Below, one piece after another: positions 17,996 through 48,706 of a DNA stretch of 64,000 nucleotides. Source of the stretch: an uncultured Planctomycetota bacterium (GTDB lineage: Bacteria; Planctomycetota; Planctomycetia; Pirellulales; Lacipirellulaceae). The translations under genes and the position numbers were made by a program. Under the pieces are notes generated by a model, which saw only the letters and a list, made by a program, of their open reading frames with translations, did not search any database and was not told the origin of the DNA. Location: positions 96,001-160,000 of the forward strand of contig CAVRBU010000001.1 of the NCBI GenBank assembly GCA_963719315.1, read 5' to 3'. The first letter of the stretch is position 1. Each line of letters starts with the position of its first letter.

Positions 17996-18022
17996 GGCGT
18001 TCCATGATTTGGAGGCGTTTCC

Positions 18023-21742: not shown

Positions 21743-21821
21743 AAATCCACGCCCAATCTGCTACATTCGATCTCCGCGCCGAAAATCCCGGCGCTCGCTC
21801 TTTGGCAACCAGGAGTAACCA

Positions 21822-21906
21822 GTAGGTCCCGCTTGCCGAGCGGGACCTCAGCGGCTGTGCGCGCGCTCCACCCGCACGGAGGTCCCTTCCGGCAGAAGGG
21901 ACCTAC
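21822..21906. repeat. GTAG-type REP doublet (REPIN-like), copy 1
   Basis: GTAGGTCCCGCTTGCCGAGCGGGACCT ... AGGTCCCTTCCGGCAGAAGGGACCTAC; second copy at 48622-48706. Confidence 0.85.
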
Positions 21907-22253
21907 AGCGTGGGCCTCTCCCCACGGGAGAGGAAGTCGCACGTTTCGTGTATCAAGGAACGTAAACTTCCCGACTTTTGCCCGCCGCCGTGCGCGCCCC
22001 ATCGCGGGTTTTGCAGAGCGGCGCGCTCGGCTGGTCGAGCAAAACGAAAGACTTTTGTACGCGTTCTATGGGACCCCTACCAGGCGCCCAATTCTAACGC
22101 GTGGCCACACAAGAGGTTAGCAACCGAGCGCACGAAACCCCGCGGGCAAAAGTCACGAAAACGCCAGAACGGCGCGATTACGCGCAAGACAATCCAAAAG
22201 ATCGGTCCAAAACTCGACTTCTTACTCCGTGCTCCCTGCCCCGTGCTCTCAGC

Positions 22254-23213: not shown

Positions 23214-23470
23214 AGCAGTTTACGATTCACTCCGCGATGGTCGCGGACTTTATCCTCAGTGCGAGTCAGCAAACCGACCGTTTCCTGATCGTTCATCTTC
23301 TCTGGGTTCCCTACATAAAGTTATCGGTTGCCGCCAATCACCAACCGAAAGGGTGTTGATGATAAGACGTATCAATAAGCCAAGCAGCGCTAAATCATAG
23401 GCTCAGTGCTCACAAAGGGCTAGCCCAAAGAACCCAGTCCGCCTTCGGCCTCGATTCGCAAACTAAAGGT

Positions 23471-23863
23471 TTATGGCTGCCCGCGGGCGGCCCCGAAAAA
23501 ACTCGAATCACAATGCCAAGTCCCGACTTTCAGCGGCACGCCGTCCGCCACGTGGAATTGGATCGTTCCGACCCGATTCGTGGCCAATACCCGCGCTCCG
23601 GACCGTTCGTATGTTTTAGTGACGAGCTCGATCTCATCCCCGCCGCCGCCGCTGATCACTACCCAATTCGGTGTGCTCCAAGCGGCGAAGCCCGGCGGAT
23701 CGCTTCGCCGGCTGCCGTGGTGCGGCGCGAGAAGGATGTCGCAGTCGTAGGACTTCTCGGCCATCACGTCGTCGATGCCGGGCGATTCCAAGTCGCCGGG
23801 CAACAACAGCCGCCGACCCGCGTACTCCACCCCCAACGTGACGCTATTCGCGTTATCGCTTCC
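23471..23863 (-). pseudogene. comEC: ComEC/Rec2 C-terminal fragment (distal half of the metallo-beta-lactamase domain), separated by the integrated element
   Basis: GSDNANSVTL..LLLPGDLE..APHHGS..VVISGG continues in frame the N-part that ends in GSDNAN at 36513. Confidence 0.93.
23846..23863. repeat. att core, left direct repeat (18 bp)
   Basis: ATTCGCGTTATCGCTTCC, identical to 36513-36530. Confidence 0.95.
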
Positions 23864-23912
23864 AATTCTGGTTACCGTGGATTCGTTGGCGGTCGCATAA
23901 GGATTCAACACC

Positions 23913-24092
23913 ATGCCCCAAGAAAAGATGACGTGGCTACAGTGGCAGCGACGGCAAGCGATCAAGCAGTTGGAGCGAAATAGACTGAAAAGAAAGGCTA
24001 AGCGTCAACGGAAGGCGATGAAGATTGAGTTTGATGATGAGCGGATTGCAATGTTAAGAGCACGCCTAATCGCACTGGAGAAAGCCGTCTAA
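23913..24092 (+). CDS. Small basic protein (59 aa, MPQEKMTWLQWQRRQAIKQLERNRLKRKAK...LEKAV); candidate recombination directionality factor
   Basis: Translated by hand (shorter than any ORF in the track); AAGGA ribosome-binding site about 9 nt upstream; first ORF inside the element. The function is inference only. Confidence 0.5.
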   Translation: MPQEKMTWLQWQRRQAIKQLERNRLKRKAKRQRKAMKIEFDDERIAMLRARLIALEKAV

Positions 24093-24222
24093 AAGAAAGT
24101 TCGTGTCGATAATAATTAAGAGCCGGTGTGCGGGGTAGCTCCCACGCATAGTCCTGCCAACACGTTAAGTCGTTTGTCCTCGCTAAACGTGTTGGCGGGC
24201 GTCCCGGTTCAGAGGACAAAAA

Positions 24223-24891
24223 ATGAAACTAATCAATGGTCGATGGTCTGCGATAGATTACGTTGAACAAGAAACCAAAACTGGCAAAGCAAGTCGGGTC
24301 ATTCGGCCTTTTGCCATCGGCCCAAAAGATCGGGTTCTGATCGTTGGTCGCAAGTCTGGCCGCGAGCGAGACAAGAATCTCAAAGATTCTATCGCCAGTC
24401 TGACCCAGGTCGTTGAATCGGCAGGCGGAACTGTGGTAGGCAGCTTCGGTTGGAAAGGCTCGGGGTGGGATCCTGATTGGATAGCCGCCGCAGTGCTGCG
24501 GGCACGGCGAATGGGGGCTACTGTACTCTTGGCTGAAACCACAGATCGTTTCATTCGCAACTTGCATTATCATAGTGCCGACAATCCCGATCTCCAGGCT
24601 ACAGATGAGCAGCTAGATGAGGCAGCTCGACTTGCGGACGGGATGACATTAATGACTCACCTAAATCCGGACGCTACGCCAAGTGAGGTTCGAGGCTACC
24701 AGTCTGCTCGCGGTCAGCGAATCAAAAACCGGACAGGTGGGCGGCCAAGGAATCCAGGTTCTACGAGGCACAGACGGTGGGCCAATCTCGTAGACGTGAG
24801 GCGGGCCCGAAGACGAGGCATGAGCCTGCGGGAAATTGCGGTGGACTTCGGGATTTCAAAGTCCGTTATCTATGACTGGTTGAATAGATAG
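24223..24891 (+). CDS. Divergent small serine recombinase (resolvase/invertase-like) with C-terminal HTH
   Basis: VGRKS (catalytic RxS), ETTDRFIR (DRxxR), GGRPR hinge, MSLREIAVDFGISKSVIYDWL HTH. Confidence 0.7.
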   Translation: MKLINGRWSAIDYVEQETKTGKASRVIRPFAIGPKDRVLIVGRKSGRERDKNLKDSIASLTQVVESAGGTVVGSFGWKGSGWDPDWIAAAVLRARRMGATVLLAETTDRFIRNLHYHSADNPDLQATDEQLDEAARLADGMTLMTHLNPDATPSEVRGYQSARGQRIKNRTGGRPRNPGSTRHRRWANLVDVRRARRRGMSLREIAVDFGISKSVIYDWLNR

Positions 24892-25087
24892 TCAGCGGGT
24901 GTCCGGTTTTTGACCGGATTTACACTGTAAGATTTCAGTTCACCCACGTATTTGCAGTGTTTCTTGCAGACCGATGCTGCAAAAAGCTATCGAAAACCGT
25001 TACAATAGCTCCCACGCCATATTACTACTCGTCACGGGGTTTCGCGTGTGGGAATCGACGGCTCCCGGCACATGATTCGGGTAGCCG

Positions 25088-25633
25088 CTACTTCCCGCCG
25101 ATCTGCTCTATTATCTCAACGATCTTGGGTACACTTTCATCGTGATTGCGATAGAAAGGGTTCTTTTGCAATTCGATGCCAGCGTTTTCGTAACGGGCTC
25201 GGCGATTGACCCCATCCCAGTCGACAGGCATCTTGGTGCGATGTAGGAGTTCGTCCTCTTCCTTTGTAATTGTCGCAATCTCCCAATGTTTATTCAAAAG
25301 GTCTTCCACGAAATCGACCGTGAGTTCACCTTTTTTTGCTCGTTCCTCACACGGCCCTTGAATGTATTTCTGTTTAGGCACAAGGTGCTCATATCTCAGG
25401 CCCGGGTACTTCTTAGCTTTGAGCTGTTGCAGAGCGGCACTGGAAATCAAATGCGTCTTATGGTGTTTGTGCATACTTTGAAAATGACTTTGACTGGCAA
25501 AGGCATTTGATAAGAATTTGTTCAGCCCTTCCTTAAGCCCTTTTACGACTAGTTCATCCGTCCAGTCGATGCTGTTGAGCAATTTGCAGTACGATTCCGC
25601 CAGTTTCCGGTATTGTGACATTGGTCGAATCAC
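25088..25633 (-). CDS. Hypothetical protein, possible HNH/His-Me-like nuclease, overlapping the mrr stop
   Basis: YEHLVP and ITKEED motifs; ORF overlaps the end of mrr by 4 bp. Confidence 0.55.
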   Translation of the reverse strand: MIRPMSQYRKLAESYCKLLNSIDWTDELVVKGLKEGLNKFLSNAFASQSHFQSMHKHHKTHLISSAALQQLKAKKYPGLRYEHLVPKQKYIQGPCEERAKKGELTVDFVEDLLNKHWEIATITKEEDELLHRTKMPVDWDGVNRRARYENAGIELQKNPFYRNHDESVPKIVEIIEQIGGK

Positions 25634-26544
25634 TCATCTTCGTCGAAGAAATCCTCGGAGATATCCAGAAGTTCGTAATTGCGTTTCGGTGTAACGCCAA
25701 CGCGATGCTCGATCATCAACTGGCAGAGCTTATCTCCGTCGATTAGGACTACTTTCTTACCCTCGATGCGATCAACATATTCGAGTGCATCGCTGCTAAA
25801 GTGGCTCGTAGTTAGGATCACACCTTTCTTGCTGCGGTGTAGGTCCATGCTGCCAACAAACTCTTTAACGGTCGGGCTGCCGACAGTTTTTTCCCAGCGT
25901 TTCGCTTGGATACAGACTGTGTCGAGGCCCAACTTATCCTCGGAGATGATACCGTCGATTCCGCCATCGCCCGACTGCGGTGTTACCAGTCCGCTGCCGG
26001 TCACTCCGCCATATCCCATCGCTTGCAATAATCTCAGCACGACGGTCTCAAAAAAGTAGGGTGAGCATTCTTTGACTTTTTCCAACAAGTCGGTCGCTAC
26101 TTTCTTTCGCAATTGATCGTAGGCCGAGTCGATAACTTCTTCGGGCGTGGCGGTCGTCTCAATCCGCTCATCGACCGGTTCTACATCCTTATCTGTGGCC
26201 TTTCCTTTCTTGAATTCACGAAACGAGTCGTATTTTCGCAGAAAATTTTGGTCGATTTGACTTGGGTTTTGTTTAAGTACGTTACGGCCAAGTTCCGTGA
26301 TCGTAACAAAACCGCGTTTTGGCGAAGATAGAAGCCCTGCGGCTTTCAAGTAGCTGCGAGCCCAGCCGATGCGGTTGGGTACGAATCGTTTCTGTCCGCT
26401 CGGCATTTTTCGGTTGATCTCTTCGTCAGTGAGTGCGAACCCCTTGGCGAGTGGCAAATAGAGATCACGCAGACGATGATCTTGGCCATCTTCAATGGCG
26501 GTGAGGAGCGGGAGCATAAAGGCATCATACGTTGGAATAGTCAT
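25630..26544 (-). CDS. mrr: Mrr-family type IV restriction endonuclease
   Basis: Mrr_N (IPTYDAFMLPLL..NRIGWARSYLKAAGL) and catalytic DGGIDG..IQAKRW..GVILTTSHFS. Confidence 0.95.
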   Translation of the reverse strand: MTIPTYDAFMLPLLTAIEDGQDHRLRDLYLPLAKGFALTDEEINRKMPSGQKRFVPNRIGWARSYLKAAGLLSSPKRGFVTITELGRNVLKQNPSQIDQNFLRKYDSFREFKKGKATDKDVEPVDERIETTATPEEVIDSAYDQLRKKVATDLLEKVKECSPYFFETVVLRLLQAMGYGGVTGSGLVTPQSGDGGIDGIISEDKLGLDTVCIQAKRWEKTVGSPTVKEFVGSMDLHRSKKGVILTTSHFSSDALEYVDRIEGKKVVLIDGDKLCQLMIEHRVGVTPKRNYELLDISEDFFDEDE

Positions 26545-26878
26545 AGGCGGATTCTAAATTACGCGGAAGCAGCACGCGAGATAAGGAGCGACGCCGAAGG
26601 CGGAGCGACTCGGGAAGAAGCATTGGCCGATGGTGATCTCGCAGCGGTGTCTCAACGCTATTCCCGTGATGGTCTGTCAATGTCCAGTGAGACAGTGAGA
26701 AATCTTGCGAAAACGGACTTTTTTAAGTCACTATCTAGCAACGACTTGCGTCAACCGATTGCACCATTTGGTGTCTAATTGGTGCAATGACTAAACCGCT
26801 CCTTTCGTGAAACTGGTCGAGCACGGGCGGCATCGTTAGCGGCCCGCTCACTCACCCCGTTTCACAAGGAGAAATCTC

Positions 26879-27361
26879 ATGGCTACGATCACAAAGAAGA
26901 CCGCGAAGAAGTCTTCACCAGTCAAGAAGAAGACCGCCTCGAAGCAAAAGCAGTCAGTTACGGAATGGTGGCAAGATTCGTGGCAACACTTGGAAGACTT
27001 ACGCGAGAAGTACGATGGTCTTCCAGGCTTGATGGAGTACGCAACGGAAGAACTCGAAGTGAATCAAGATTGCGAAGTAGACGACATAGCAAACGAACTT
27101 CAAACTGAATCCTACTACGAGGACATGGACGTTGAAGAGTTTATCATCCTTGAAAAAGGTCCAGCGTTCATGACGAACAGAGCAATCTTCACGTGGTCAT
27201 ACAGCCACAGCAAAGATACCAAGGCTGTCGTATGTAAACTGGCAGCAGATTACGGTTTGACTTTCAATCAGCTAGTCAAACTTTACAATGCCCTGCCCAA
27301 CGAGAAAGACTGGAAAGGACAGGACGTAAAAGAGTTGTATGATCTCCACGTCAAGAAGTAA
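26879..27361 (+). CDS. Hypothetical protein with Lys-rich N-terminal tail and acidic core
   Basis: AAGGAG RBS; clean 160-aa ORF. Confidence 0.75.
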   Translation: MATITKKTAKKSSPVKKKTASKQKQSVTEWWQDSWQHLEDLREKYDGLPGLMEYATEELEVNQDCEVDDIANELQTESYYEDMDVEEFIILEKGPAFMTNRAIFTWSYSHSKDTKAVVCKLAADYGLTFNQLVKLYNALPNEKDWKGQDVKELYDLHVKK

Positions 27362-27441
27362 GTAAATCAGCTCACTCTCGCTCATGGAGGAGCGAGTGTG
27401 GGCATTGTCTTCCAAAGAGTTCAACCAATAAGGAATCTCAC

Positions 27442-27705
27442 ATGGACCACTATCAACAGTCGCACGAAACTCTGACTAGTGGAGTCAAAAAGAAGTTTGA
27501 GGATCTGGAACGGAACTACCCAGAGCCAGAGCATCAAGGTGCCTTGGCGAACTTGCGTGCAAAGGTACACAACTTCTGCACATCCGAGGTGCCGACCAAC
27601 GACGATGAACTGATGAAACTTACAAAGTCTAAAATGGATGTGATGACGGCAATACACGGAGTAGACAGTGTTCTACATCGAATGAAACTGTGGGCTAAAA
27701 AATGA
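27442..27705 (+). CDS. Hypothetical protein
   Basis: AAGGA RBS; 87-aa helical-looking ORF. Confidence 0.65.
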   Translation: MDHYQQSHETLTSGVKKKFEDLERNYPEPEHQGALANLRAKVHNFCTSEVPTNDDELMKLTKSKMDVMTAIHGVDSVLHRMKLWAKK

Positions 27706-27768
27706 ACTTGGAGTACAAGAATTGGCCCGTGAGATTGCTAGAGATTCTAGTCCACAAAACGATCTGGA

Positions 27769-28683
27769 TTAGTTTTTCTGCCGAGGCCGAGGTAGCGGTA
27801 CGATAGTCGGAACGTCGGCTTTCCAAACTTGACTTCTAGAGGTGCTTGTTGGAGGCATGGTATTATATGAGACGGTCCGTGGCACATCGGCACTAAGTGG
27901 CAGACCCGGAACAATCATTTCTGATTCGTCACAAGCCATAGTTGGAGAACTCCCATTGGCCGGAGCGGTCTGTCCTGCGTTTTTGGTATCCTGCCAAAAT
28001 GCCTTTACATGGAACCGCAACCACTGACGGTTGTGCTGATCTGGGTACTCAGTAAGCACAAATACAAATTCGTGCATTACCGACTGCTTCGGCCTTAACA
28101 CCGTTACTGTTTCAATAGTTTCGCCAGCATGTTTTAACTCATACCAATTAATATGCGGCGAATTATTTGAGATGGCGAAAATGCGACCGTGCCTACAATC
28201 GTGGGTCGGGTCCAATTTGGATAAGTCCGGGTAATCATCGTGTCTTTTCGCAATTGGCTTAAGTGGTACGTCCATAGTCGTAGCCGCATCTTTTACAATG
28301 TTACGCCGTTGATTGAAAAACTTTTGCGTGAGATACAAATCCTGTTGAGCGTCATCCGTAGGAACCCCGTCTGAGACGACCAATTGAAGTTTCTTTAACT
28401 CAGCTTCGGCTCCACCCACGTTTGTTACTACAATTCTCAGGCGTATCTCGCGGATGTCTTCGACTGAATCCGATTGTGAGATCGTTGGCGTCAAGGTAAT
28501 AGCCGGCTTGTTTTGCTGCTCGATATTTTCTGCTTGAGCCGCTGTTAGGCGATTTGGTTGGCGACCAAGAAGAAGATAGTTACCGCCAAGAACCAAGAGT
28601 GCCATTAATCCACCTGCGACTGCCCCGGGCACTCCATCATACGAAAATACTTTCGCAAGCAGTTTTTTCATCACATCGTCCAA
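27769..28683 (-). CDS. Hypothetical membrane-anchored protein
   Basis: 304-aa ORF with N-terminal TM segment (AVAGGLMALLVLGGNYLLL). Confidence 0.65.
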   Translation of the reverse strand: MDDVMKKLLAKVFSYDGVPGAVAGGLMALLVLGGNYLLLGRQPNRLTAAQAENIEQQNKPAITLTPTISQSDSVEDIREIRLRIVVTNVGGAEAELKKLQLVVSDGVPTDDAQQDLYLTQKFFNQRRNIVKDAATTMDVPLKPIAKRHDDYPDLSKLDPTHDCRHGRIFAISNNSPHINWYELKHAGETIETVTVLRPKQSVMHEFVFVLTEYPDQHNRQWLRFHVKAFWQDTKNAGQTAPANGSSPTMACDESEMIVPGLPLSADVPRTVSYNTMPPTSTSRSQVWKADVPTIVPLPRPRQKN

Positions 28684-29744
28684 TGAGTGCGGGATGTTGA
28701 GTCGAGAACCTGAGTGACTTTGTCGCGATCTGTCATGGGAAACGCTCCAAGATCAAAGTGACGCAATTTTAGCAATGAGTTCGGCGGATACCCATTAATT
28801 GCGACTTGTTGAAAATGCTGGTGCTGAGTATGCGTCGATTATCGACATTCAACGGCAAAAAACAATTAGTGAGTTCGGCGAAAAATGCAAGGAGATTCAC
28901 GAACTACACCCACCAGTTATCCACCAGATACCCCGTGCAACACAGTCCGCTCTCTCAGCAAATCCCCAGTCAACCTCACTCCAACTAGTGAGCAGACTCC
29001 GTCCAAAATCGCTAGGCAACTTCCGAACAAACGCAAGTGAGTTGGAAAAATGTGAGGCAAAAGAAAACCTCGAAAAAACAAGCAGCAAAAGCATCCTAGA
29101 CACCACACACCACACCCCACAAACCGCCGGTAAACCCCGCTCCGCAGCAACGCTCCACGAAGACAGCAAAAAAACAGAAAACGAGCCGAAGTGAATGCCT
29201 TAGTCAGTTTTGTCTAGTGCGTCCCAAGCAGTAAGACTACACTGCCACTAGATCACGATGTCTCAAACAGTGCGTACTGACCTAGGAGCAAAGACAAAAT
29301 CTAGTCACAACTAGGTAGAATCTGAGAAGCCTAACTAGAACTAGTTAACTCCCTAGTTATCATAAACGTCTGCGGCAGTTTTTTGCAGATTCTCGCCACG
29401 CTAGATTCGTCTAAAAAGAAAACTCAGGTCCCAAGAGGCCCGGCTTAGATTTTCGACGATCTGATCAACCTCGCGTCGATCTTCGATCCAAGTCTGGCTA
29501 CTCCGCGTCTAATGACCACAGCTCACGATCTAGCACGTCTGCATCGTCTCAAGCGTCGCTCACGCTGTAGATCACGCGACGATCACACTGTAGCTCCACG
29601 TCGTCTGTCAGTCGGTCGATGCTCACGCTGTCCATTTTATGGGGATCAGCGTTTCTCGCTTTGATCAATGCGTCGAACAATCACCGCGAATTTTTAGCCA
29701 GTGATCGTTCCGAAAAGAATCCGTCGATTTTATCGTTCGACCGA

Positions 29745-29806
29745 TTGACAGCGATCAAACAACCGATACGATGAAAGATAGCTAGTGGACGTGTGTACAC
29801 TAGCTA
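29745..29806 (+). promoter_or_regulatory. Putative sigma70 promoter followed by an operator-like palindrome
   Basis: TTGACA (29745)-16 nt-TACGAT (29767); TAGCTAGTG..CACTAGCTA inverted repeat 29779-29806; upstream of the rightward resolvase-terminase gene run. Confidence 0.55.
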
Positions 29807-29839
29807 GTTTTAGTCACCACGTATTTTGGAGAATCTGTC

Positions 29840-30227
29840 ATGTCTACGAAAACGAAAAAGACCGACGCAACGCCAGTCGCTCCCGCAACGGTTGTTGCTG
29901 CTCCCGCTGCTCCCGCATCGAATCGACCCGCTTACGAAAAGAAACGTATCGTTGGTGAAAAGATCGACGCAGATGATGCAGGCTGGAAAAAACACAGCCG
30001 AAGAAATCGCTAAAAGCCGTTGGTTGTTCAGCTGGCTCGCGTCAATGAGTCATTACAAATGGGCGAACGATGGGAAGAATCCACGCTACGAATTGAACGC
30101 TGCAACAACAGATTCGTATTTGATCGGAAAACCAATCGCGTTCCGTAAGCACTATTTCGATCCCGCACCCGTGGAAACAAAAGCCGACCGAAGAAAACCC
30201 GTAGCGAAGAAGACCACAGCTGCTTAA
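29840..30227 (+). CDS. Hypothetical Lys/Ala/Pro-tailed protein with an apparent frameshift near 29965
   Basis: GGAG RBS and ATG at 29840 (MSTKTKKTDATPVAPA..); plausibly continues in another frame as MMQAGKNTAEEIAK..KPVAKKTTAA. Confidence 0.5.
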
Positions 30228-30619
30228 TCACGTCACGTCACCCGCAACGCTCGCATGGCAATGCAATGTGACCGACGAATGCGAACGGCTAACTATTCCG
30301 CCTCACAACGATAGCCCGAAATGTTCCCCATCGACCGAACACCACGCTTGCAACCAATCACGATTGAGTACGACTGTAGAGGCAAACGAGTCGCAGAGGA
30401 CATTCACTAACGACTACGAGGCTCGCAGGTTCTACGTCACTAAAGACAAGGCAGGCAAACGACCTAAAGTGCGAAAGGTAGAGACATGAACTAATTGACT
30501 GCCAGGTTAGCGGAGAGTCGGTGTCTCGGTCTCACAGGAAGGGATCTCATGCCTGCACTTGAGATTTTGAGCAAGTCAACACTCCCAGTTTTTTAACCAT
30601 CATTTTCGGAGACAAACAC

Positions 30620-31238
30620 ATGAATCGTGTAGCAGTTTACATTCGCGTATCAACAACGGATCAAGAGAAAGGAATTGACTCACAGAAACGAGCAATCCGC
30701 CAATACCTGAAAGGTCACAACATTTCCAAGTCACGTTGGTTCGTTGATAGAATCTCGGGCAACTCGCTGAAACGTCCAAAGCTAGATCGACTCAAGCGTG
30801 CCATTTTCAATGGAGAAGTGAAAACCGTAATCGTTTGGTCACTCGACCGGATTACGAGACGCGGACCAAGAGACGGATTGGAGTTGCTTTCCAGTTGGAT
30901 GAAAAAAGGAGTTCGATTAGTTACCGTCACGGAACAGTTGGACTTGAACACAGACGCAGGTGAAATGATTGCGTCACTCTTGTTCAGCATCGCCAAAATG
31001 TACAGGACCAAACTCATTGAAAACACGAAACGTGGACTCGAAGCGGCCCGTGCACGTGGAGTCAAACTGGGTAAAAGACCGGGCAAGTGGACCGTTGGAG
31101 GTTAAACCGTTGCACGATGCGGGAATGTCGCCACCCGATATCGCTCGCAAGCTGGGGCGGACCCGTCAAGCGGTTCATAACGTGCTGAACGGTAAGACGG
31201 CAACGTGGAAGCCAGAGCAAGCGAAAAAAGCCCAGTAA
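30620..31238 (+). CDS. Serine resolvase/invertase; frameshift near 31100 separates the HTH
   Basis: VAVYIRVST, DRITR, GVKLGKRP; HTH (MSPPDIARKLGRTRQAVHNVL) in the next frame. Confidence 0.88.
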
Positions 31239-31340
31239 AACCATAGCTAGAATTAGGGATGACGATTTATAGGGATGCCTGGTAGAATTGGGATACCACG
31301 AGATACAAGCCAATTGTCGAGTGCGTAGAGTGAGCTACAA

Positions 31341-31796
31341 ATGAAAACGAAAAAGATCAAGACGCCAAAGCTAAAAACCAAGAGACACAACAAAATCCGT
31401 CTCTACGGTAAAAGAATCGTCAAGCTGCCATACCCGATAACCGGTAAGAAAGACAAAGGGTTCAGACTCCGCCAAATCACGGAGGCAGACAACCGATTCG
31501 CTGTGGTCAAGACAATGAAGCAACGTCTCAAGCAGTTGATCGAAGATGCAGACATTACTTCCATTCAAAGCGAATGGCTGGCTGCGAGAGCGGTCTTCAT
31601 TGTCGGTTATCTAGAGAGCCTAGAAGTTGATGCGTTGGATGGAAAACAGATTGATTGGACGAAGTATCTGCAAGCGACTCGTTCGCTCACTGACGTGCTG
31701 AACAAACTGGGTCTGGACAAGGTGTTGAAGTCCGCCCAGCGTCTCGAAAATTATGTGGCAAACTACAACGATGAGCAGTTGAAGATTCGGAAGTGA
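31341..31796 (+). CDS. Hypothetical protein, candidate terminase small subunit
   Basis: 151 aa; its stop overlaps the GTG start of the terminase large subunit (GTGA). The call is positional only. Confidence 0.45.
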   Translation: MKTKKIKTPKLKTKRHNKIRLYGKRIVKLPYPITGKKDKGFRLRQITEADNRFAVVKTMKQRLKQLIEDADITSIQSEWLAARAVFIVGYLESLEVDALDGKQIDWTKYLQATRSLTDVLNKLGLDKVLKSAQRLENYVANYNDEQLKIRK

Positions 31797-33212
31797 CTAT
31801 CATTGAAGCGATCGAAGATGAGAACTTGTTTAGGTCGTTCCTGGCCAATAGAAAAGATAGCCTAGAAACATGGAGACCTTGGCTAATAGCGTTGCGAGTG
31901 TTGTATGGTCTTGCCAGTACGAACGACGTACGCTCGCAAGCTGATTCGTAAGTGCACGGGACGCGACCCCGACAAATTGCCAAAAGATGGTTTTCAAACG
32001 GCACTCTTTCTCACGGGCCGACGATCCGGTAAGTCTAGAATCGCGGCAGTCATTGGTGCTTACTCCGCAGCTCTCGCAGGTCTGGAAAAGAATCTGGCCG
32101 CGGGTGAACCCGGACTCGTCGTGATCGTTTCACCGTCTAAAAGACAAAGGCACGTGGTGAAGGATTACTTGCGGGCCATTTTCGATGCTCCGATGCTCGC
32201 CCAGGAACTTGTGACCGACAGAAGGCACGAAGGTTTTGAGTTGACCTCTGGCACTCGCGTGGACATGCTCGCTGGTGACTATCGCCACGTCAGGGGATTC
32301 TCACTCTTAGCTTGCGTCTGCGAAGAAGTGTGTTTTTTTGGTCTCGATGAAATGACGCGAGTCCGTAGTGACACCGAATTAATCCGTGCACTCAAGCCGT
32401 CTTTGGCAACCACGAATGGCAGATTGATTTGCATTTCGTCACCGTATGCAAGACGAGGTTGGGCTTACCAGCAATACAGCAAACACTGGGGCAATGATAA
32501 CTCCGATACGTTGGTTTGGAACGCACCGAGTCGCACGATGAACACGACACTCCGGCAGAGCGTGATTGATGCAGCGATAGCTGAAGATTTGAGTGCAGCG
32601 AAGTCAGAATATATGGGAGAATTCCGTGATGATGTCTGTCTCTTTATGCCACCAGAGATGATAGATCGTCTAGTCGTTCGTGGACGCATTGAGAACCAGT
32701 ACGATCCCACGAAAAAGATAGAAGGCATTCGCTGATCTGTCTGGAGGTAGAAACGATGCGGCTGCACTTGCAATCGCCCACCGCGAAGGACGCAAGACGG
32801 TTCTCGATTGCATCCGTCATTATCCAAGTCCGCACAACCCGCATCCCGTAATCGCGGAGATGTGTCGCGAGTTGCCGCGATGGGGAATCAATCGCATTAC
32901 AGCCGATGCCTACGCTGCGGACTTCGCTGTCGGAGCTTTCCAAAACCACGGGGTGAAGTACACCAAAGCCGAGAAAAACAAGTCGGGTTTTACGCGGAAT
33001 TGCTGCCAGTCATCTGTGCGGGTGAACTCGAATTGTTGGACCACCCCAGGCTGATTAAGCAATTGAGCACACTCGAACGTAGAACACGATCAGGCGGTAA
33101 GGACGTGATAGATCACCCTGTCAATCAGCATGATGACTTGGCGAATGCCTTAGCAGGTGTTGTAGTGCTCTCAGCAACGAAGAAAAAGAAAGTCGGGGCC
33201 GGAGGGTTCTGA
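31793..33212 (+). pseudogene. Phage terminase large subunit, broken by about 3 frameshifts (~31915, ~32725, ~32990)
   Basis: Walker A GRRSGKS, Walker B CVCEE, ISSP coupling motif; nuclease motifs ADLSGG, ITADAY and [10 protein letters not shown] in successive frames. Confidence 0.85.
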
Positions 33213-33230
33213 CTCGAAAGGAAAACCAAA

Positions 33231-33734
33231 ATGAATCTCAAGCTACAGCAGGAATGGAACGAAGAATTGACATTCACCGATCCAGAGAGGCAAGCCTTTT
33301 ACGAAACTCATGGAGATTTTGTAGTCGCTGATGACCACGAAGTGTTGTTTGAAGACGGAGCCGTGGAGGAAGGTTGTGTTGGTGGTCAGAGACAGCCGCC
33401 ACCTAAAGACGCCTTTGAGCGTGCGAAGAAGATTCATCGTTATTTCGAGTTCAAAGCGGACCATGCACTTGAGCAATTCAAAGATTTTAAAGCATACCTT
33501 TCCGGTAACGGTTCTTGTCCTGCTTTCATCGCCAACAAAAGCGACGAAAAGAAACTTGCGTACCTGAAGAAATTGCGTCTTGCTGCGAAAAAGGCAACGG
33601 CTGGTCTTCGTGAAGCCATTCAAGAGGTCGAAGACGAGACACCAGCATGGATCGTTGCGAGAGAACGGGAGCGGGCAGAAGACGAACGAAGAAAACAGAA
33701 TTTCAGAAACAAAGTCGATTCCATCAGATTGTAA
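33231..33734 (+). CDS. Hypothetical protein
   Basis: AAGGA RBS; 167-aa ORF with coiled-coil-like C-terminus. Confidence 0.7.
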   Translation: MNLKLQQEWNEELTFTDPERQAFYETHGDFVVADDHEVLFEDGAVEEGCVGGQRQPPPKDAFERAKKIHRYFEFKADHALEQFKDFKAYLSGNGSCPAFIANKSDEKKLAYLKKLRLAAKKATAGLREAIQEVEDETPAWIVARERERAEDERRKQNFRNKVDSIRL

Positions 33735-33757
33735 CCACCAACCTTTAGGAGAAGATC

Positions 33758-34057
33758 ATGATAACAGTAAACATTCACCCGAAGACCGCACCGAATCCAA
33801 AGTGTTGTTCCGATCCGAGTGTGCTTTGTGCCAATTGTGCGTCTGAAGTTCTCTCCAACCAATTCCGCAGACGACGCAAACGTAGGGCGATACTGGCCGC
33901 ACAACAGCACGAAGAGGTTGCGTTGGGTTTGCCGGACTGGGATTTCAGCGACAAGACCGAAAAGCATGTTGTGCAGACGGAAAAAGAACGAAGACAAACC
34001 GTTAGACACATTCACGGAGAGAGACCCTTGGCCATTCCCGAACTCGACTACGGTTAG
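33758..34057 (+). CDS. Hypothetical Cys-containing protein
   Basis: AGGAG RBS; CC..CANC motif. Confidence 0.6.
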   Translation: MITVNIHPKTAPNPKCCSDPSVLCANCASEVLSNQFRRRRKRRAILAAQQHEEVALGLPDWDFSDKTEKHVVQTEKERRQTVRHIHGERPLAIPELDYG

Positions 34058-34108
34058 CGGTAAAGTCGTCGCCCAGACTGTGCACGAGGGTTTGGGCTTG
34101 ATGCTCGC

Positions 34109-34150
34109 GGCCGCAGTTCGTGGGTTTACTTCATAGCACGAACTGCGGCC
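34109..34150. terminator. Perfect 14-bp inverted repeat after the terminase gene run
   Basis: GGCCGCAGTTCGTG (34109-34122) and CACGAACTGCGGCC (34137-34150); no U-tract, so the role is uncertain. Confidence 0.45.
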
Positions 34151-34827
34151 CGCTCGATTACTTGGATCTGTGAAGTGCCGGTGTGGTGGGACTGTTCTTC
34201 ATAGTCTCGCAGTCCTGCCACCCGGCTTTTGAAAAGACAAAGATCGTTCTCCTTTGGGGGCCGGCTGCCGTGGTTTTCCATCAGTGTGACGCGGCAGTCG
34301 GTTTTAGAAAGTCCGTGAAGTGCTGGGAGTGGCGGCGGTGGTTTCATATCCTTAACCGCTGCCGCACCCCCCGGCCATTGAGTTCTACGGGAGCCAGCCT
34401 GACAGCGGTGGAGTTTTTCACCTGCTTCGCCCTGTCGGCTGTTTTTTTCATCCGCCGATTTCCTGATCGCTGGCGTGGGACGATGTTAGGTTGGGTGGTT
34501 TTGCAAGTGGCTGTTTTTAGCCATGCCGTCCAAGGGGTGGCAACGATGGTCGATCCGAGCCAGCGAACGCGGCAAATGACCACTGGGGGGCCGCTATGGC
34601 GTGCTGAATCGGCAAGCGAGCCAAGCCGGAGCCAACGATCAATCGAACATGGGCAAGTTGTTAAGCAAAAAGAAAATGCAACCACTTGAATCGTCGCGGA
34701 TACAATGCTCGCGGCGGCAACGATTCGCAGCGTAATTAACTGTATCGGGCCATTCAATCCCTGACCGGATTGGCTGCCGCCATTTTTCTTACATCGTGTT
34801 TGGTCAGGGTGAAAGGTCAGGGCTTCT

Positions 34828-36555
34828 ATGGCGAAAAAAGACGCTAAGCCGATTCGCTTCGCGGCATGGATTCGCGTCTCAGACAAAAAGCAAGAGAAGC
34901 ACGGCGAGTCGCTTAACACGCAACGGGCAGATAATCGTGCCGACGTGGGGCGTCTAAAGGGCAAGATCGTGGAGTGGTATGGGGGCCAAGAGCACGGCAC
35001 TCCCGGCTTTGAGAAGAAAGAGTTTGATCGCCTTTTGGCGGATGCCAGGAAAGGCAAGTGGGATGCGGTGATCTTGAACCACGCCGACCGCTGGAGTCGC
35101 GACAATGAAAAGTCGAAGGAAGGACTCCGCGTGCTTCGAGATCAGAATATCAAGTTTTTTGTGCGGACCTTTGAGCAAGACCTGAACAATCCGACCGTTC
35201 GACTCTACTTGGGCATGTCCGCCGAGATCGGCGAGTATCAAGCGGCCACACAATCTCAGAAGTCGCTGGTCAATCGTCTCAATCGAGCCAAAGAGCATGG
35301 CGTTCCTACGGCCGGCGGACCAATGCCATACGCTCGGTCTTTTAACAAGGTAACAAAACAATGGGAACTCGATGAAAACAAGCGAGCACTCATTGAAGAT
35401 GCGGCCCGCCGCTATCTCGCAGGCGGTTCAATCAAAAAGATTGCGGCCGAAATTGGCATGGAGCATACGCGACTGCACCGAATTCTTACAAAAGGCAGCG
35501 GTGACAAGTGGGAGATTCGCTTTCACTCCAAAGACCTCAACATCGACGAAACGGTCCTATTCACAATTCCGCGATTGCTGTCGGACGAGACCATACGACG
35601 GATTCATAAACAGGTCGCTTCCAACAAGACTTTCACCCACGGACAACCTAAGCACAAATACTTACTCGGTCGCATGGTGTTTTGTCACCACTGCGGAGTT
35701 CCGTTGACCGGGCAGACCCGCCAAAGCGGCAACCGTTACTACCGCCACGCGAAGCCTACGGCCACTAAGCCGTGTGTCTGTGGGTCTGGCGGCGTTGATG
35801 GGAAACTGCTTGAGGAGAATGTGATTCGCCAGCTTTTCGATATCTTTGGGAACCCGCTCGCGGTTGAGCGTGCGATTCGAGACGCCACCCCCGATCTTGG
35901 CAAAACGGAATTACTGCGGAATCGGCAAGCACAGATCGAAAAGGAATTGGCGAAAGTGGAGCGGGCCAAAAAGCGAATTCTAAATCTGATCGACTTGGAC
36001 ACGATCACGGACGAGGACGCCACGCTGAAACTGACGGAATTAAAGCTAAGAGCAGAAGGATTCAAGGACGAGCTATCGGAGATCGAAGATAATCTCTCGA
36101 AGTTTCGTTCCCCGGAAGCGATCAAAGCAGTTTCCGAAATGGTCGCTCAGTCGTTCACCGAGGCAATGTTTCCAGCCCGTCGAAATTGCCGAGGCATCGG
36201 CTTACTCGCACACGAGGGCAAGAATAAGAAAGGCCGATTGAGTGCGGCATTGTGGGCCAAGTTGGATCAAGCCGACGAAAGTCACCACGAAATGACTTGG
36301 GATGAAAAGCGGTCCTTGATGCAAAAAGTGCTTGGTGGCCTTACACCAAGAGGCAAGCGGATGGGCGTTTACATCGAGTGGGTTAGCGGCGAGGATGGCC
36401 AGCCGCCAAAATGGCGATACTCGATCCGTGGGCAAATTACGCAGCCTCTTCTGTGGCCCCAATCGAAAGAGCGACCGCAAAACGCTCACGAAGATGCCGT
36501 AAACAAAATTGGATTCGCGTTATCGCTTCCCAGCACGCCTGGCTCGGGCGGGTGA
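34828..36555 (+). CDS. Large serine recombinase (integrase); ORF reads through the att core
   Basis: WIRVS catalytic Ser, DRWSR, recombinase domain, CHHC..CVC zinc ribbon, coiled coil. Confidence 0.95.
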   Translation: MAKKDAKPIRFAAWIRVSDKKQEKHGESLNTQRADNRADVGRLKGKIVEWYGGQEHGTPGFEKKEFDRLLADARKGKWDAVILNHADRWSRDNEKSKEGLRVLRDQNIKFFVRTFEQDLNNPTVRLYLGMSAEIGEYQAATQSQKSLVNRLNRAKEHGVPTAGGPMPYARSFNKVTKQWELDENKRALIEDAARRYLAGGSIKKIAAEIGMEHTRLHRILTKGSGDKWEIRFHSKDLNIDETVLFTIPRLLSDETIRRIHKQVASNKTFTHGQPKHKYLLGRMVFCHHCGVPLTGQTRQSGNRYYRHAKPTATKPCVCGSGGVDGKLLEENVIRQLFDIFGNPLAVERAIRDATPDLGKTELLRNRQAQIEKELAKVERAKKRILNLIDLDTITDEDATLKLTELKLRAEGFKDELSEIEDNLSKFRSPEAIKAVSEMVAQSFTEAMFPARRNCRGIGLLAHEGKNKKGRLSAALWAKLDQADESHHEMTWDEKRSLMQKVLGGLTPRGKRMGVYIEWVSGEDGQPPKWRYSIRGQITQPLLWPQSKERPQNAHEDAVNKIGFALSLPSTPGSGG

Positions 36556-38756
36556 AACACGCGAATCGAAACGTCCGAACCAACTTGCAGCCGATCGCCC
36601 GACCAGATTTCGCGGATCGGCACGCCGGCTCTCTCGATCTCCTTATGCAGCAACTTTACGCCGTCCGTCGCGCCCGAGTCACCGAACCCCGCGAACATGA
36701 CGGGCGAAACATACACGGTACCGACCCGAAATCGCTCCAACAGCCCGGGGACGGCGTTGTAGTGGTCGGAGTCTGCGTGCGAAATCACGATTCCATCGAT
36801 TCGCAGGATGCCGCGGTGCCACAAGTAGGAAGCGATCGTTTGCGTGGCATACTCCGGCGAGCCGATCGCCCCGGCGTCGTAGAGCAGTGTTTTGCCATCG
36901 GGGCTTTGCATCACGGCGCACGCCCCATGCCCAACGGCGACGAACGAACAATCGAGCCCGCTACGCGTCCAGGTTCTCGACAGCGGCGGCGCGAGACCGA
37001 CCAGAATCCACACCGCAAGAGCCGCCACTTGCCAGCGCGGCGCAAGGAGCGTCCGGCCTTTCACCATCACCACAAGCAACCCGAGATAAAACACCGCAAC
37101 CCACCACCACGCTGGACCTGGCGCCCAAAAATGACCGGCGGGCACGGCATCGGCCCACGAAACTACACGCTCCAACCACGCCAGCGACCCGTTGCAAACC
37201 CAACCGCACAACACACCGAACGGCGGAATCAGCCCGCCGATGGCCACCATCAAGAAGCCACTCCACATCGACACGAAGACAATCAGCGAAACCGCCGGGC
37301 TGATTACGACGGCAATCGGCGAAGCGATGTGAAACTGGCTGAGCACCAGCGGCAGCGTCGTAAGCCACACGACGGCCGACATCAACAGCAGCAACATCGT
37401 GGCGCCAGCACACCAGTCGAAAGCGCGGCGATACCAGGGCCACGTCTCCCTTTCCAATTCTTCGATCGGAGTCATCGGCCGCCGTATCGGCCACCAGGTC
37501 CACCCGCCGATCCATACCAATGCCGCGACGGCCAGAAAACTCAATTGCGGCCCCGGCCGAAACAGATCGCTCGGTTTGAGCGCCAACACGAACAGCGCCG
37601 CCAGGAACAGCGAATTGAACGCCACGCCGCGGCGACCGGTCCAGGCGGCGACGCAAAACAGCACGCCTAGCACCGCGGCCCGCACCACCGGCGGTTGTGC
37701 CTCGGCAAGTAGCGCATACCCGACCACAACCGCCACGATCACGCTCAACCCAACCCGCCGCGGCAGCCAGCCGACCCGCATCAAGGCAATTAGCCCGGCG
37801 GCCAGGATTGCCACGTTCATACCCGAAACCACGAGCACATGGATCGTCCCCGTTTCGAGATATTGCTCCGTTTCTTCAAAAGGAAGTCCTTCGCGAGCGC
37901 CCAACAGAATCGCGGCCGCCAGACCGGCACGTTGGCGACCGATCATCGTTCGCACGTATTGTTTGGCACGCGCGCGAACTTCGTCCAACCAATACCCTGG
38001 CGTCCACGCGCTGCCGGCCGCCAATCGCACCACGCTCTCCGGCGCCGAACTGCGGAGCCGCGCCAACTGCCCATCGGCACGGGCGTGCGCCGCGAAATCA
38101 AACTCGCCAGGATTGAGCGGCGGCGCGGGCCGAGCGAGTTGACCGTACACGCGCAGCGTGTCGCCTCGGTGCACACCCAACAAATGCCCATTCACCGCGA
38201 GTTGACAAACACCGCTCGCGGGGCGCCACTCCCGGCCATCGCGGATTTCCTTCACTTCAACCAGCAGCCGGCTGCGTTCGGTGACCGGAATCGCGCGGAG
38301 CGGCGTCGGCGGCGGCGCCGAGACGCGCTCGGGCGACTGGCAAGCCACCGCCTCGATGCAGGCCGGCGCCGGCTGATAGGCGGCGTACCGGCTAATCTCT
38401 TCTTTGGCAAAGAGAAACCAGTTCAGATGATGCCACGCGGTTCCCACCAGCGCCGCCGACGCCAACAACAGCCCCGCGGCAATCGCTTCCCGTCCCCGCC
38501 GCCACGCCAACCACCAAATCGCCAGGAAGCAGGCACATAAACTCCAAGACACGACAAACCATCCGGCGCTTCCCAACCAACCGAGAGTACTGGGAAGATC
38601 TGCAGTCAGGATATAGCGATCGAACGCCATTCCGACCGCTACGGCTGCGAACGCGAGGACGAGCGGTTGATAACGTGCGCGGGAGCGGACGCCGTTTTCG
38701 ACTCCGGCCGTCTCAGCGGGAGAATCGCCGTTCGCTTTCGTGCAGACTCCGTCCAT
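36486..38756 (-). pseudogene. comEC: ComEC/Rec2 N-terminal part (competence channel and first half of the MBL domain), truncated by the element
   Basis: NPGEFDF, HVLVVSGMNV, PPVVRAA, QLSFLAV, VGHG, SHADSDHY; ends GSDNAN plus element-derived PILFTASS*. Confidence 0.94.
36513..36530. repeat. att core, right direct repeat (18 bp)
   Basis: ATTCGCGTTATCGCTTCC, identical to 23846-23863. Confidence 0.95.
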
Positions 38757-38764
38757 GCGACGGA

Positions 38765-41700
38765 TTATACAACGCCGGCAGCAGCCAATGTAAACTCTTT
38801 CAGCGATTCGAAGACGGCATCCACCGAATTCAAATCATCGCCCTCAGCGTCGCTTGCAATTCGCAGGCCCATCGCTGCATCGTTGTTCGCACGACCTTCG
38901 TTTTTCGACGACGATAGCCATGCCAACAGTCCCGCGTCGTGGTGCGAGCCGCCATTCAACGCTGGCCGACCGAAATGTCGATCGCGCCCGCGGATTCTGC
39001 TATTACCGGTTGAGTAGGAGTCGAACGATCTCAGGGCAGCGTTTTCCGGCCTGGCCGCTTGGCCAACGGTACTCGCGGAAACGCTTGCTGTCGGGGCCGC
39101 AACTAGTTCACCATCGGCCACGTTCGATGTCGCCAGGGCAATCCCCGCGGCGGCAGGACTAGCGTCCGGAGCCGGCGCGGGTTGGGGCGCCTCGGCCAAT
39201 TCCTGTCCGCTGCCACTGCCGTTCGTCTCGCCATAATGCTGGCGCCAAACAAGCAAGTCTCCCGGGCCAACAACGCCGTCTCCATCCCCATCCGCGCCTG
39301 TGAATTGTGGAACCGTTTGGCCAACCGTCCGGCGATACATCACGTAATCGCCCGCGTCGACGACGTTGTCGTGGTTGTAGTCGCCCAGCAACATCTGCGA
39401 ATGATTGCCGAAATCGACGTTCTTCACATTCCGGTGGCTGTCGGGCGGTGTATCGTTGGGATCATCCTGGGCGGCAACCGTGACCGTCCATTGCGAATTC
39501 GCGTATTCGGCAGCCGGGATACTTGCGACCTGCGGGGGCACTTGCGTCCAGCCCGGTTTCTGTTCTTCGCGAATGACGTACTGGCCCGCCGGCAGATCGG
39601 GGAACGCGTAGTTCCCATCCGCGTCGGTCGTTAGATACACTTCGCCTGACTTGATCTCCAGCGACCAGCTATTGAGAGTGCCCTGATCGGCGAACGCATT
39701 GTCCCGTATCAGCAGCGTCCATAGCCCAGTCGCACTCTCGCCGATGAAATCGCTCAGCAAGCCCTCAGGCTTCCAAGTGCCCGTAAATGGCAAATCGTTG
39801 ACGCCAATTGTTGCGATCGACCGCGTCGCAGCGTCGTCTAACGTCAGATTATGCAGGTCGTTATATTGACCGCCGACCGCCGTGAACAGTTCGACCTGCC
39901 TCCCCGACGGGCTGATAAGAAAGGCGTCCAGGTCTCCCACAAAGCTGTGGGTCACATCGAGCGTCACGCGAACACTGAACACCGTGCCCAGTTCGTTGAA
40001 CGACACGCTCGACGTAGTCGTCGAAAAATCGGTAATCGGCTGGGGCAAGCCGGTTGCGTTGATCGTCACCGGGTCGGAGCCAAGATCTCGAGTTCCGTCG
40101 TTATCCGAATCGATGTACACGATCCAATTCGACAACCCGGGTTCGTTGCCATCGTTAACCCCATCGCTATTGAAATCGTTGAATTTTTGACCCGCGATCG
40201 AACCATGCTGCGTCGTGGGAATCCAATTTCCGAAGTCGATACCCAGGATATCGGCTCCCGACCTCACCGTGACCGGGCTGGGCGCGAAGCTCTGGCGCCA
40301 ACCATCGGCCGCCTGCTGCTCGGAGATGTCTTCGCGAATGAAGTATTGCCCAGCCGGCAGATCGGTGAACGCATAGTTGCCGTCGGCATCGGTGATCTGG
40401 AAAGGCTCTAGAAACACACCTTGCAATTTGACCGTGATCGACCAACTGTTCAAAACACCTTCGTCACCCGTCGCGTCATCGGTGATCTCGAGGTTCCAGA
40501 CGCCGACGGCATCCTCCCCGTTCAAGACGCTCAGCGGCTCGATCGGCCGGTACCGGCCGGTGAAGGGCGCCGCACCGCTCAAGATCCCGGTCGGCGCCGC
40601 ATCGTCGAACACCGTGGCGGTGAAGTTGTCGCCTTCCGGATCCTGCGGGGTCGCATTTTGAACCAGCTTCACGCGCGTCCCCGACGGACTGACCAAGTAC
40701 ACTTTCACATCGGAGTCGTATGTATGCGTGATATCGAGCATGACATCGATATCGGCGATCGTTCCGACTTCTTCGAACGACAATTCGCTTTTGACAGTTG
40801 TGTAATCGTGAATCGCTTGCGGAATATCAGGCGAGGCGACGGTTAGGTCTTGATCGCTCGTGGAATTGAGAATTCCGTCGTTGTTCACATCGAGATAAAT
40901 GACCCAGTTCGGCAGTCCCGCTTCGCTTGCGTCGTGAACCCGATCGCCGTTGACGTCATTCCACTTTTGCCCCTGGATCGATCCGACCTTCGTCGGCGCA
41001 ATGGCCACGCCGGCGATCGCGGCGATGAATCCTGTTTCGTTGGTCACCGTAATCGTGATCTCGCCGGACGCGTCCGAGATCACGAGCAGCGAGTAGGTCG
41101 ACAAATCATTGCTGCCGGGCATGTTGCCGTTGGTGACTAAACCGTCCGCCGAGACGTTCTGCACATAGTCAAACGTTTGCAAAGTTCCGTTCCACTGGCC
41201 GCCCACGACGTGAACATCGTTTTTGGCGTCCGCGCCGGCGTGCCCGAATACGTACACCTGGTAGACCGTCGACGGCTCCAGATTTCCCCAGATAAACGAC
41301 AGCGTTTCGTCCTCCGCCGAGATGTAGCCATCCAGCCCATCGAGCGGCAGCCCATGATTCGGGATATCGGCCGGATCGATCGGGTTGGGGCTGGCAACCG
41401 TCGCGATCGGCGAAGCGCCCGTGGTTTGGATCGTCAGTTGGTAGGGCGTAACCTGCCCCGCTTCGCTGACAAGATTCTTGATCGTCTTATCCGTGTCGCC
41501 GCCGGCGTAAAGAGTCCAATTCTCAGGGCTTGATCCGTTCGCGTCGTCGAAATCAACGCCGACTACCAGATTCTTTTTCCGTGTGCCGACGATGCTGTAA
41601 TACCCCAGGCTACCGTAATTCGTGTATCCCCAGTCCGAGGTGTCGGGAGGGAGCGGCGGGTCGGGCGGATTTCCCTCCGCCTCGAACGGACCAGGGTGAA

Positions 41701-48456: not shown

Positions 48457-48621
48457 CGCCGGCTCCTCTCGCTTGGGAACTGTGTAACCACTCTCCCGCC
48501 ACCTCACTTCTAACGCGCCCCGCTCCGCAAATACAGCCCCGCAATCCCATCCGTGCCATCCGCGCCGGGTGCCACGGACCTTCGCCCGTGCTCTGCCTGC
48601 CAGGGCCTTGCAGGCCAAAAA

Positions 48622-48706
48622 GTAGGTCCCGCTTGCCGAGCGAGACCTGAACCCGCCCCGCAACATCGCGAATCCGCTAAGGTCCCTTCCGGCAGAAGGG
48701 ACCTAC
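48622..48706. repeat. GTAG-type REP doublet, copy 2
   Basis: Same arms (one mismatch) and same 85-bp length as 21822-21906, with a different spacer. Confidence 0.85.

Follow-up and report, generated by a model that had tools for sequence, protein, structure and literature searches.

In a 64-kb stretch of the draft genome of an uncultured planctomycete (contig CAVRBU010000001.1; hereafter the window, with all coordinates in its numbering unless a locus label is given), the competence gene comEC is split by an insert that lies between two copies of an 18-nt repeat and encodes an apparently intact large serine recombinase. Precise excision would, on what we consider sound grounds, rebuild a full-length comEC of conserved appearance. 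It is probable in our view that the locus records a selfish or neutral integration that disrupted the gene and is reversible in principle, as opposed to a demonstrated switch under host control.

Reconstruction of comEC

The repeat, ATTCGCGTTATCGCTTCC, occurs in two perfect direct copies (Table 1) with zero flanking identity, as not one base further is shared on either side. It is the longest perfect direct repeat within 23000-37500, and by an arithmetic estimate about 0.03 exact 18-mer direct repeats would be expected by chance in 64 kb. The window contains six groups of repeated 18-mers, the other five of which belong to repeats at 8.2/51.8, 21.8/48.6, 48.5/50.1 and 48.9/49.2 kb. The insert between the copies, which measures 12,667 bp, has a GC content of 0.50 versus 0.59 in each flank. 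Read on the minus strand, the repeat encodes GSDNAN, corresponding to the conserved G-x-D-N-A-N motif of the ComEC metallo-β-lactamase domain.

The N-terminal part of comEC lies in an open reading frame (ORF) of 756 residues (36486-38756, minus strand) with Pfam matches to DUF4131, Competence and the first half of Lactamase_B; the frame ends in GSDNAN, followed by 8 residues read from the insert. The true coding sequence of the C-terminal part begins at the other core (GSDNANSVTL..., from 23863 downwards). Alone, this part has no Pfam match; by alignment it completes the metallo-β-lactamase domain, and the ComEC order of DUF4131 (OB-fold), Competence membrane domain and metallo-β-lactamase domain is present. 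The break separates the HxHxDH-type motif (SHADSDH) from LPGD and HHGS, which follow it, and neither half contains a stop or a frameshift. Deleting 23864-36530 in silico yields a single ORF of 872 residues, in which GSDNAN occupies positions 743-748.

An earlier, sequence-only reading of this stretch had pointed out the repeat that encodes GSDNAN in both halves, the uninterrupted 872-residue ORF obtained by joining them, the position of the break, and the absence of stop codons from both halves beside an intact integrase. We located both copies with their exact ends, reproduced the joined ORF by script, recognized the break in the translation as well as in the alignment with congeners, and found the integrase frame open, with the motifs of serine recombinases.

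Integrase and attachment sites

In the integrase, Pfam detects a resolvase domain (PF00239, E-value 1.7e-13, residues 12-155) and a zinc ribbon (PF13408, 1.8e-06, residues 279-336) in which cysteines 286, 289 and 316 are conserved. The match to the PHROG integrase profile phrog_95 covers residues 4-440 (1e-47), and PF07508, the Recombinase domain expected after the catalytic domain, went unreported at E<=0.01; the region looks integrase-like but divergent. All 8 of the aligned family members have the R-V-S nucleophile motif, and a profile built from the integrase and seven relatives matches the catalytic domain of the TP901-1 integrase (PDB profile, 2.8e-13).

Serine integrases act on an imperfectly dyad-symmetric attP with a non-palindromic central dinucleotide, which shares a short core with attB. 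When the two sites are rebuilt from the ends of the insert, attP shows dyad symmetry at 16 of 24 positions, centred on the TT that occupies core positions 8-9. The mean for random centres in the window is 6.1, a value of at least 15 has a probability of 1e-4 per position, and 20 centres were tried. The rebuilt attB is symmetric at 10 of 24 positions around the same centre, and the flanks of attP and attB beyond the core are unrelated (6 of 20 positions identical on each side). The anatomy of the reconstructed sites is that expected of a serine-integrase site pair.

The reading frame of the integrase extends across the attR core and has its stop 25 nt inside comEC DNA. The protein is predicted to have 575 residues in the integrated state and 579 residues in the excised circle, with differing tails; the swap touches the last 10-14 residues only. 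In two relatives the att core lies at or beyond the integrase stop. Since the tail is not conserved in the family, we assign no function to the swap, and a functional role of it appears doubtful. In the predicted circle, the 59-residue ORF at 23913 would begin 12 nt past the integrase stop, forming a tandem pair with it only then. No tRNA was found at the element ends and no Rfam family in 22000-39500, and a promoter and terminator scan around the integrase remained at or below the shuffled expectation.

Search for excision in sequencing data

The sequencing data comprised three soil-metagenome runs of one study (shares 0.14, 0.11 and 0.00) and no RNA run. On 22000-40500, run contigs of 200-300 nt cover the flanks at a depth of 2-4, many of them free of mismatches, and leave 24468-36190 almost bare. 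Our search of the contigs from the two runs with flanks found no bridging contig, no joint and no attP-type loose end, a result that is evidence neither for an empty site nor against excision. An exact 32-nt query consisting of the core and its comEC side had 0 matches in metagenome contigs.

Two public runs with near-identical flanks and almost no cover of the insert might suggest that foreign DNA was wrongly joined into the contig, as might the state of the assembly, a draft of 20 contigs (5.93 Mb) with a completeness of 90.7%. A chimera would not, however, yield identical 18-bp repeats at both ends, a codon-exact restoration of the frame, an integrase abutting one end, or a dyad-symmetric rebuilt attP. 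We therefore regard an assembly artefact as highly improbable.

comEC in related genomes

The genome from which the window derives has only one comEC match, the split gene. Counting this genome, comEC was found in 38 of 41 related genomes, and for comparison we used the 11 best congener loci. In all of these comEC is intact, collinear with the joined gene and forms one uninterrupted frame of 880-925 residues; the matches to the N- and C-terminal parts are exactly 18 nt, i.e. the core, apart, and the flanking genes are the same. The joined ORF aligns with the congeners without gaps across the junction (G-x-D-N-[AS]-N-S-[IV]), and at the DNA level the core matches their sites in 11-15 of 18 positions. 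At sites invariant in the other 11 proteins, the joined ComEC deviates in 7 of 232 cases (3.0%), compared to 0.4-6.2% for the intact congener genes in a leave-one-out analysis. As this value is within the range of intact genes, we see no sign of relaxed constraint on the split gene. Of other uptake-type genes, the genome has dprA and those for nine T2SSE-type ATPases and a ComEA-like HHH_3 protein; genes of this type are widespread among bacteria not known to transform.

In several congeners (G003, G009, G012, G014, G022), comEC is broken into two to four neighbouring fragments or interrupted by in-frame stops. This may reflect frameshifts in draft metagenome-assembled genomes (MAGs) or real decay, and is a hint that loss of the gene is tolerated in the genus. 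In a member of another family of the order (G031), comEC is split in the Competence membrane domain (L028 = G031:C236:14000-23000; insert 1991-6561). The insert of about 4.6 kb carries a Gp49-like/HTH pair, resembling a toxin-antitoxin system, and an IS1-type transposase.

We also surveyed 79 metagenome loci encoding comEC relatives. The gene is uninterrupted across the site in 59 of them and ends before it in 15 (14 at a contig end, and L144 at 309 nt short of one). The remaining 5 stop near the site and represent two distinct sequences, in both of which the far junction lies outside the contigs. In one (L164, 109-5418, and L165), a comEC 35% identical to that of the window is cut directly after D-N-A-N and followed by foreign DNA, which encodes a canonical large serine recombinase with 24% identity to the window integrase. 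In the other (L106-L108), the comEC relative, with 45% identity, breaks off 13 codons short of the motif, at about 5055 in L106; genes for a GNAT acetyltransferase and an HNH endonuclease lie downstream, and the C-terminal part was not found within 3 kb. We conclude that comEC is struck repeatedly and by different agents, and that its DNAN-coding stretch may be a convergent target of unrelated serine integrases.

A family of compact terminase-encoding elements

Among 400 other genomes of the order, 13 encode a homologue of the integrase (39-47% identity); of six congeners sampled, none does. The insert also contains remains of a large terminase subunit (TerL), homologues of which (47-62% identity) occur in 18 of 400 genomes of the order, all as open frames of 454-562 residues. 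In eight genomes the TerL homologue lies 2-4 kb upstream of the integrase homologue.

To compare layouts, we set the window copy beside the 20-kb loci of six relatives, giving seven elements. In the relatives' loci the gene order is: a g222-type gene (named after the 222-residue protein of the window), variable DNA, a small serine recombinase, a TerS-like gene (for its probable role as the small terminase subunit, see Table 1), TerL, a g167-type gene and the integrase. The g222-type proteins have 207-274 residues (5 of 7 elements), the TerS-like proteins 121-162 and the g167-type proteins 159-244 (6 of 7); the small recombinase is found in 6 of 7 elements, and TerL is intact in all six relatives (448-532 residues).

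The boundaries of three relatives could be mapped by direct repeats close to the 3' end of the integrase gene. One element measures 9,134 bp and has a 32-bp core inside the integrase ORF. The second (L044 in G040, oriented 6411-18578) measures 12,154 bp, with a 14-bp core over the integrase stop, and the third (L046 in G083, oriented 5805-18695) 12,853 bp, with a 38-bp core 72 nt past it. The latter two interrupt the same small conserved gene, which we take to be UPF0047/YjbQ-like, at its 5' end within the first ~20-25 codons. The family members use differing intragenic sites. Small size appears native to the family, given that the three mapped relatives span 9.1-12.9 kb; together with the layout common to the six relatives and their intact TerL, this rules out a degraded full prophage.

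As a single-protein query, the integrase found nothing in genome-contig or viral-contig collections. Its alignment profile matched 44 loci in a species-level genome collection, mostly in Planctomycetota MAGs and in a few Verrucomicrobia, delta-proteobacteria and Acidobacteriota, with TerL within 4 kb in 12 of the 44. Among viral contigs (IMG/VR) the profile matched 13 loci, of which only one is a clear family member, and this one is without TerL. In one genome TerL is present in three copies (G302:C1, at 4.28, 4.72 and 5.80 Mb) and in G083 in two, which suggests several family elements per genome.

Searches with Pfam and PHROGs recognized no capsid, portal, tail or lysis family in the element and no primase, helicase or Rep family in the window copy. 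Elements of this kind, compact (9-13 kb), capsid-less and combining a terminase with a serine integrase, seem to constitute an undescribed family.

Decay of the window copy

In the window, TerL is broken into pieces at 31793-31912 (frame 2), 31941-32693 (frame 3), 32665-33036 (frame 1) and 32967-33200 (frame 3). Mapped onto an intact homologue of 473 residues, the gene has three frame changes, and in each of the 6 relatives its four pieces map by tblastn to a single uninterrupted gene. It was through these matches that we placed the nuclease pieces, which PHROGs do not recognize alone. Two of the three shift zones contain A5 runs, for which reason the frame changes could be sequencing errors. 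No second TerL was found in the genome. The small resolvase has 161 residues versus 200-240 in relatives, whose proteins align to it only up to their residue ~154-193; about 50 C-terminal residues are gone. Judged by these frame changes and the truncation, the element copy is partly decayed.

With 2 of 6 core element genes damaged, the insert could be a fixed remnant that never excises, either for want of a directionality factor or through a silent or inactive integrase, and comEC would then be a young pseudogene. Of 107 positions that do not vary among six relatives, 16 are changed in the integrase, a share close to the upper end of the range for the relatives themselves (4-15.7%), and comEC is in pieces in several genomes of the order, such as G031 with its IS1-like insertion, so that its loss seems tolerated. 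However, the integrase retains a complete ORF and its catalytic motifs, the two cores are identical in 18 of 18 positions, and the comEC halves have acquired neither stop nor frameshift. To us, such a dead end seems quite unlikely.

Comparison with known systems

The closest precedent is provided by the streptococcal elements Phi1207.3 (Tn1207.3), Phi10394.4 and Tn1207.1. They are reported to integrate at a GA dinucleotide in comEC/celB; Phi1207.3 has three serine-recombinase genes (PMC4260502), and its induced excision restores some competence (PMC10383233). As in this group, the window element is a serine-recombinase element placed site-specifically within the comEC coding sequence, and like Phi1207.3 it has three serine-recombinase genes. 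In the group, insertion is described as impairing transformation. The members described come from Firmicutes and are prophages of 52-59 kb that encode structural and lysis functions, or a defective derivative of 7 kb; the window element measures 12.7 kb, has no recognized capsid gene and resides in a host of a distant phylum. The target is a duplicated GA dinucleotide in the group, in contrast to an 18-bp core with an inferred central TT in the window. The window element is thus an analogue and not a member of this group, and the restoration of competence by excision has, by the accounts cited, already been published.

A further study reports that transformation deletes integrated elements and that many pneumococcal prophages occupy competence-inhibiting sites (10.1101/2024.08.13.607808). 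The Listeria comK prophage (phi10403S/A118-like) is likewise described as a phage-derived element in a gene of the competence system, which excision restores. There, in what has been termed 'active lysogeny', excision is reported as observed, regulated during infection and beneficial to the host, and the target is the regulator comK instead of the channel (PMC7397523).

With phage-inducible chromosomal islands (PICIs), including SaPIs and capsid-forming PICIs, the window element shares a size of 9-13 kb, a terminal integrase, packaging genes, defence cargo and the lack of recognizable shell genes. It differs from them in that its family has a full TerL together with a TerS-like gene, a large serine integrase and intragenic sites, and no recognized capsid, portal or replication module.

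In Bacillus subtilis, the skin element (SpoIVCA) and SPbeta (SprA) use a large serine recombinase to rebuild a split host gene by precise excision, which is linked to sporulation, takes place in a terminal cell and depends on known directionality factors or regulators. The likeness lies in a (partly) defective phage-like element that splits a host gene, but a link of the sporulation type is not visible in the window.

The sequence-only reading knew of no such case in Planctomycetota, and our literature search, too, found no report of a comEC-inserted serine-recombinase element in this phylum within the one library that it covered. The interpretation of the locus in that reading as a serine-integrase insertion whose excision restores the ORF stands, and its candidate competence switch is neither supported nor contradicted; what it had missed is the compact family with a terminase, the damage to TerL and the small resolvase, and the streptococcal precedent.

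Interpretation of the insertion

On the preferred reading of a selfish or neutral integration, the element would have inserted itself into the 18-bp comEC stretch by means of its own large serine recombinase. Its layout of TerS-like gene, TerL, serine recombinases and cargo would fit a phage-satellite-like hitch-hiker. While it is integrated, ComEC-mediated DNA uptake would be blocked, and this block would favour the element by preventing its removal through transformation ('chromosomal curing'). With its broken TerL and truncated small resolvase, the present copy can presumably no longer package its own DNA; given an intact integrase and two intact att sites, excision should still be chemically feasible.

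Several observations weigh against this reading. None of the 44 loci with integrase relatives in the genome collection has comEC within 4 kb, and none of the 13 order-level relatives lies in comEC; insertion into comEC has therefore been observed just once in the lineage, and an adaptive anti-transformation strategy is not demonstrable from it. We know of no natural transformation in this group, so that the proposed loss of competence is deduced from gene content only. The whole channel domain remains in the N-terminal part, which might still be functional to some extent. About half of the element ORFs are without annotation, which limits what the absence of capsid genes can tell. Lastly, the three disruptions all fall in TerL and none in the integrase or the 2.6 kb of comEC, for which we computed P ~0.015 under equal neutrality. 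Selection could be keeping the 1.7-kb integrase and comEC usable, favouring a switch; equally, TerL could have been broken before integration, or the assembly could be in error at the A5 runs.

Such a switch would be a domesticated, host-regulated one, comparable to Bacillus skin and SPbeta or the Listeria comK prophage: the functions for spread have been lost, the integrase, the att sites and comEC are maintained by selection, and excision turns on uptake in a subpopulation. It would account for an intact integrase, intact cores and intact comEC halves beside a TerL with three frame changes and a truncated small resolvase, and it is compatible with the lack of excess change at conserved comEC sites, with the other uptake genes and with the partial recovery of competence described for Phi1207.3. 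However, neither an attB nor an attP molecule was seen in the data examined, no recombination directionality factor is recognizable among the element genes, and no regulatory link between the element and comEC is visible. The GC content of the element is still far from that of the host, the element is absent from the six congeners sampled, and all 11 congener comEC loci fetched are empty; foreign GC content and absence from congeners fit a recent arrival at the strain level better than an old domesticated part. With TerL possibly broken before arrival as well, we consider a host-regulated switch unlikely and retain the preferred reading of a selfish or neutral integration.

Elements in competence genes are central to the view of an 'intragenomic conflict', in which uptake deletes elements and elements knock uptake out. 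The well-studied ones are from Firmicutes and a few Proteobacteria, and to our knowledge competence has never been shown in Planctomycetota. The locus described here exhibits this relationship in a lineage distant from the well-studied cases. It does so with a clean anatomy, comprising a single comEC, codon-exact restoration, an intact integrase and a symmetric attP, and supplies a defined set of attP, attB and integrase. Regulated excision, were it to be found, would give a first indication that competence is under control in the group. New here are the lineage, for which our searches found no reported case, and the seemingly undescribed family; the principle itself has been published before.

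Gene content of the element

The coordinates of comEC, the att cores and the element genes are collected in Table 1. The 222-residue protein (g222) is recognized by Pfam through its HTH only; its relation to the small resolvases of the family emerges from hhalign (probability 97.5%, E-value 7.8e-12). The Mrr gene matches PADLOC mREase_IV over its full length (4e-78). The cargo in 26879..28683 is not common to relatives. The 151-residue protein has no Pfam or PHROG match; from its place and its nearest named Atlas cluster, terminase small subunit, it is probably the small terminase subunit, an assignment we offer as a lead only. For the 167-residue protein (g167), which we considered as a candidate helper of the integrase, the AF2 model has a pLDDT of 85; we obtained no notable Pfam match, no Atlas match, and nothing at E<=0.001 with Foldseek against PDB and BFVD.

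Table 1. Split comEC, attachment-site cores and element genes in the window.
Feature	Position	Strand	Basis or remark
comEC C-terminal part, second half of metallo-β-lactamase domain with LPGD and HHGS	23471..23863	-	Translation, collinear with 11 congeners
attL core, 18-bp perfect direct repeat, encodes GSDNAN on minus strand	23846..23863	.	
59-residue basic ORF adjoining attL	23913..24092	+	Not conserved in relatives
222-residue divergent small serine-recombinase-like protein, C-terminal HTH	24223..24891	+	Family core gene (5 of 7 elements)
181-residue ORF, cargo, overlaps end of Mrr gene	25088..25633	-	No significant family
Mrr-type type IV methyl-directed restriction endonuclease, defence cargo	25630..26544	-	Pfam Mrr_N and Mrr_cat
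Variable cargo ORF	26879-27361	+	No Pfam, PHROG or PADLOC family above noise
Variable cargo ORF	27442-27705	+	As above
Variable cargo ORF	27769-28683	-	As above
Small serine recombinase (resolvase/invertase type), 161 residues	30620..31105	+	Pfam Resolvase, 2.2e-35
151-residue core gene directly 5' of TerL, TerS-like	31341..31796	+	7 of 7 elements; nearest named Atlas cluster, score 0.91
Large terminase subunit (TerL) pseudogene, four pieces, three frames	31793..33209	+	PHROG terminase large subunit, 1e-15 (ATPase piece)
167-residue core gene between TerL and integrase	33231..33734	+	6 of 7 elements; small beta domain, long helices
Large serine recombinase (integrase), 575 residues, intact	34828..36555	+	Pfam Resolvase and Zn_ribbon_recom, PHROG, family alignment
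attR core, second 18-bp copy	36513..36530	.	
comEC N-terminal part: DUF4131, Competence channel domain, first half of metallo-β-lactamase domain	36531..38756	-	Pfam, alignment

Within the element, the 14-nt sequence GAAAACGAAAAAGA occurs at 29848, 31343 and 33221, the third copy being 86% identical. Three element ORFs have it at their start and thus share a K-T-K-K N-terminus.

Other repeats in the window

Outside the element, the segments 21821-21906 and 48621-48706 form an intergenic repeat made up of a pair of neighbouring hairpins, the stems of which read AGGTCCC...GGGACCT. The second of them, 27 nt long, has 59 copies in the genome on both strands at <=2 mismatches, compared to 0 for a reversed control, and represents a REP-like family. 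A further structure, also outside the element, is a 43-nt inverted repeat at 11761-11873, which is 81% complementary and has a 27-nt loop.

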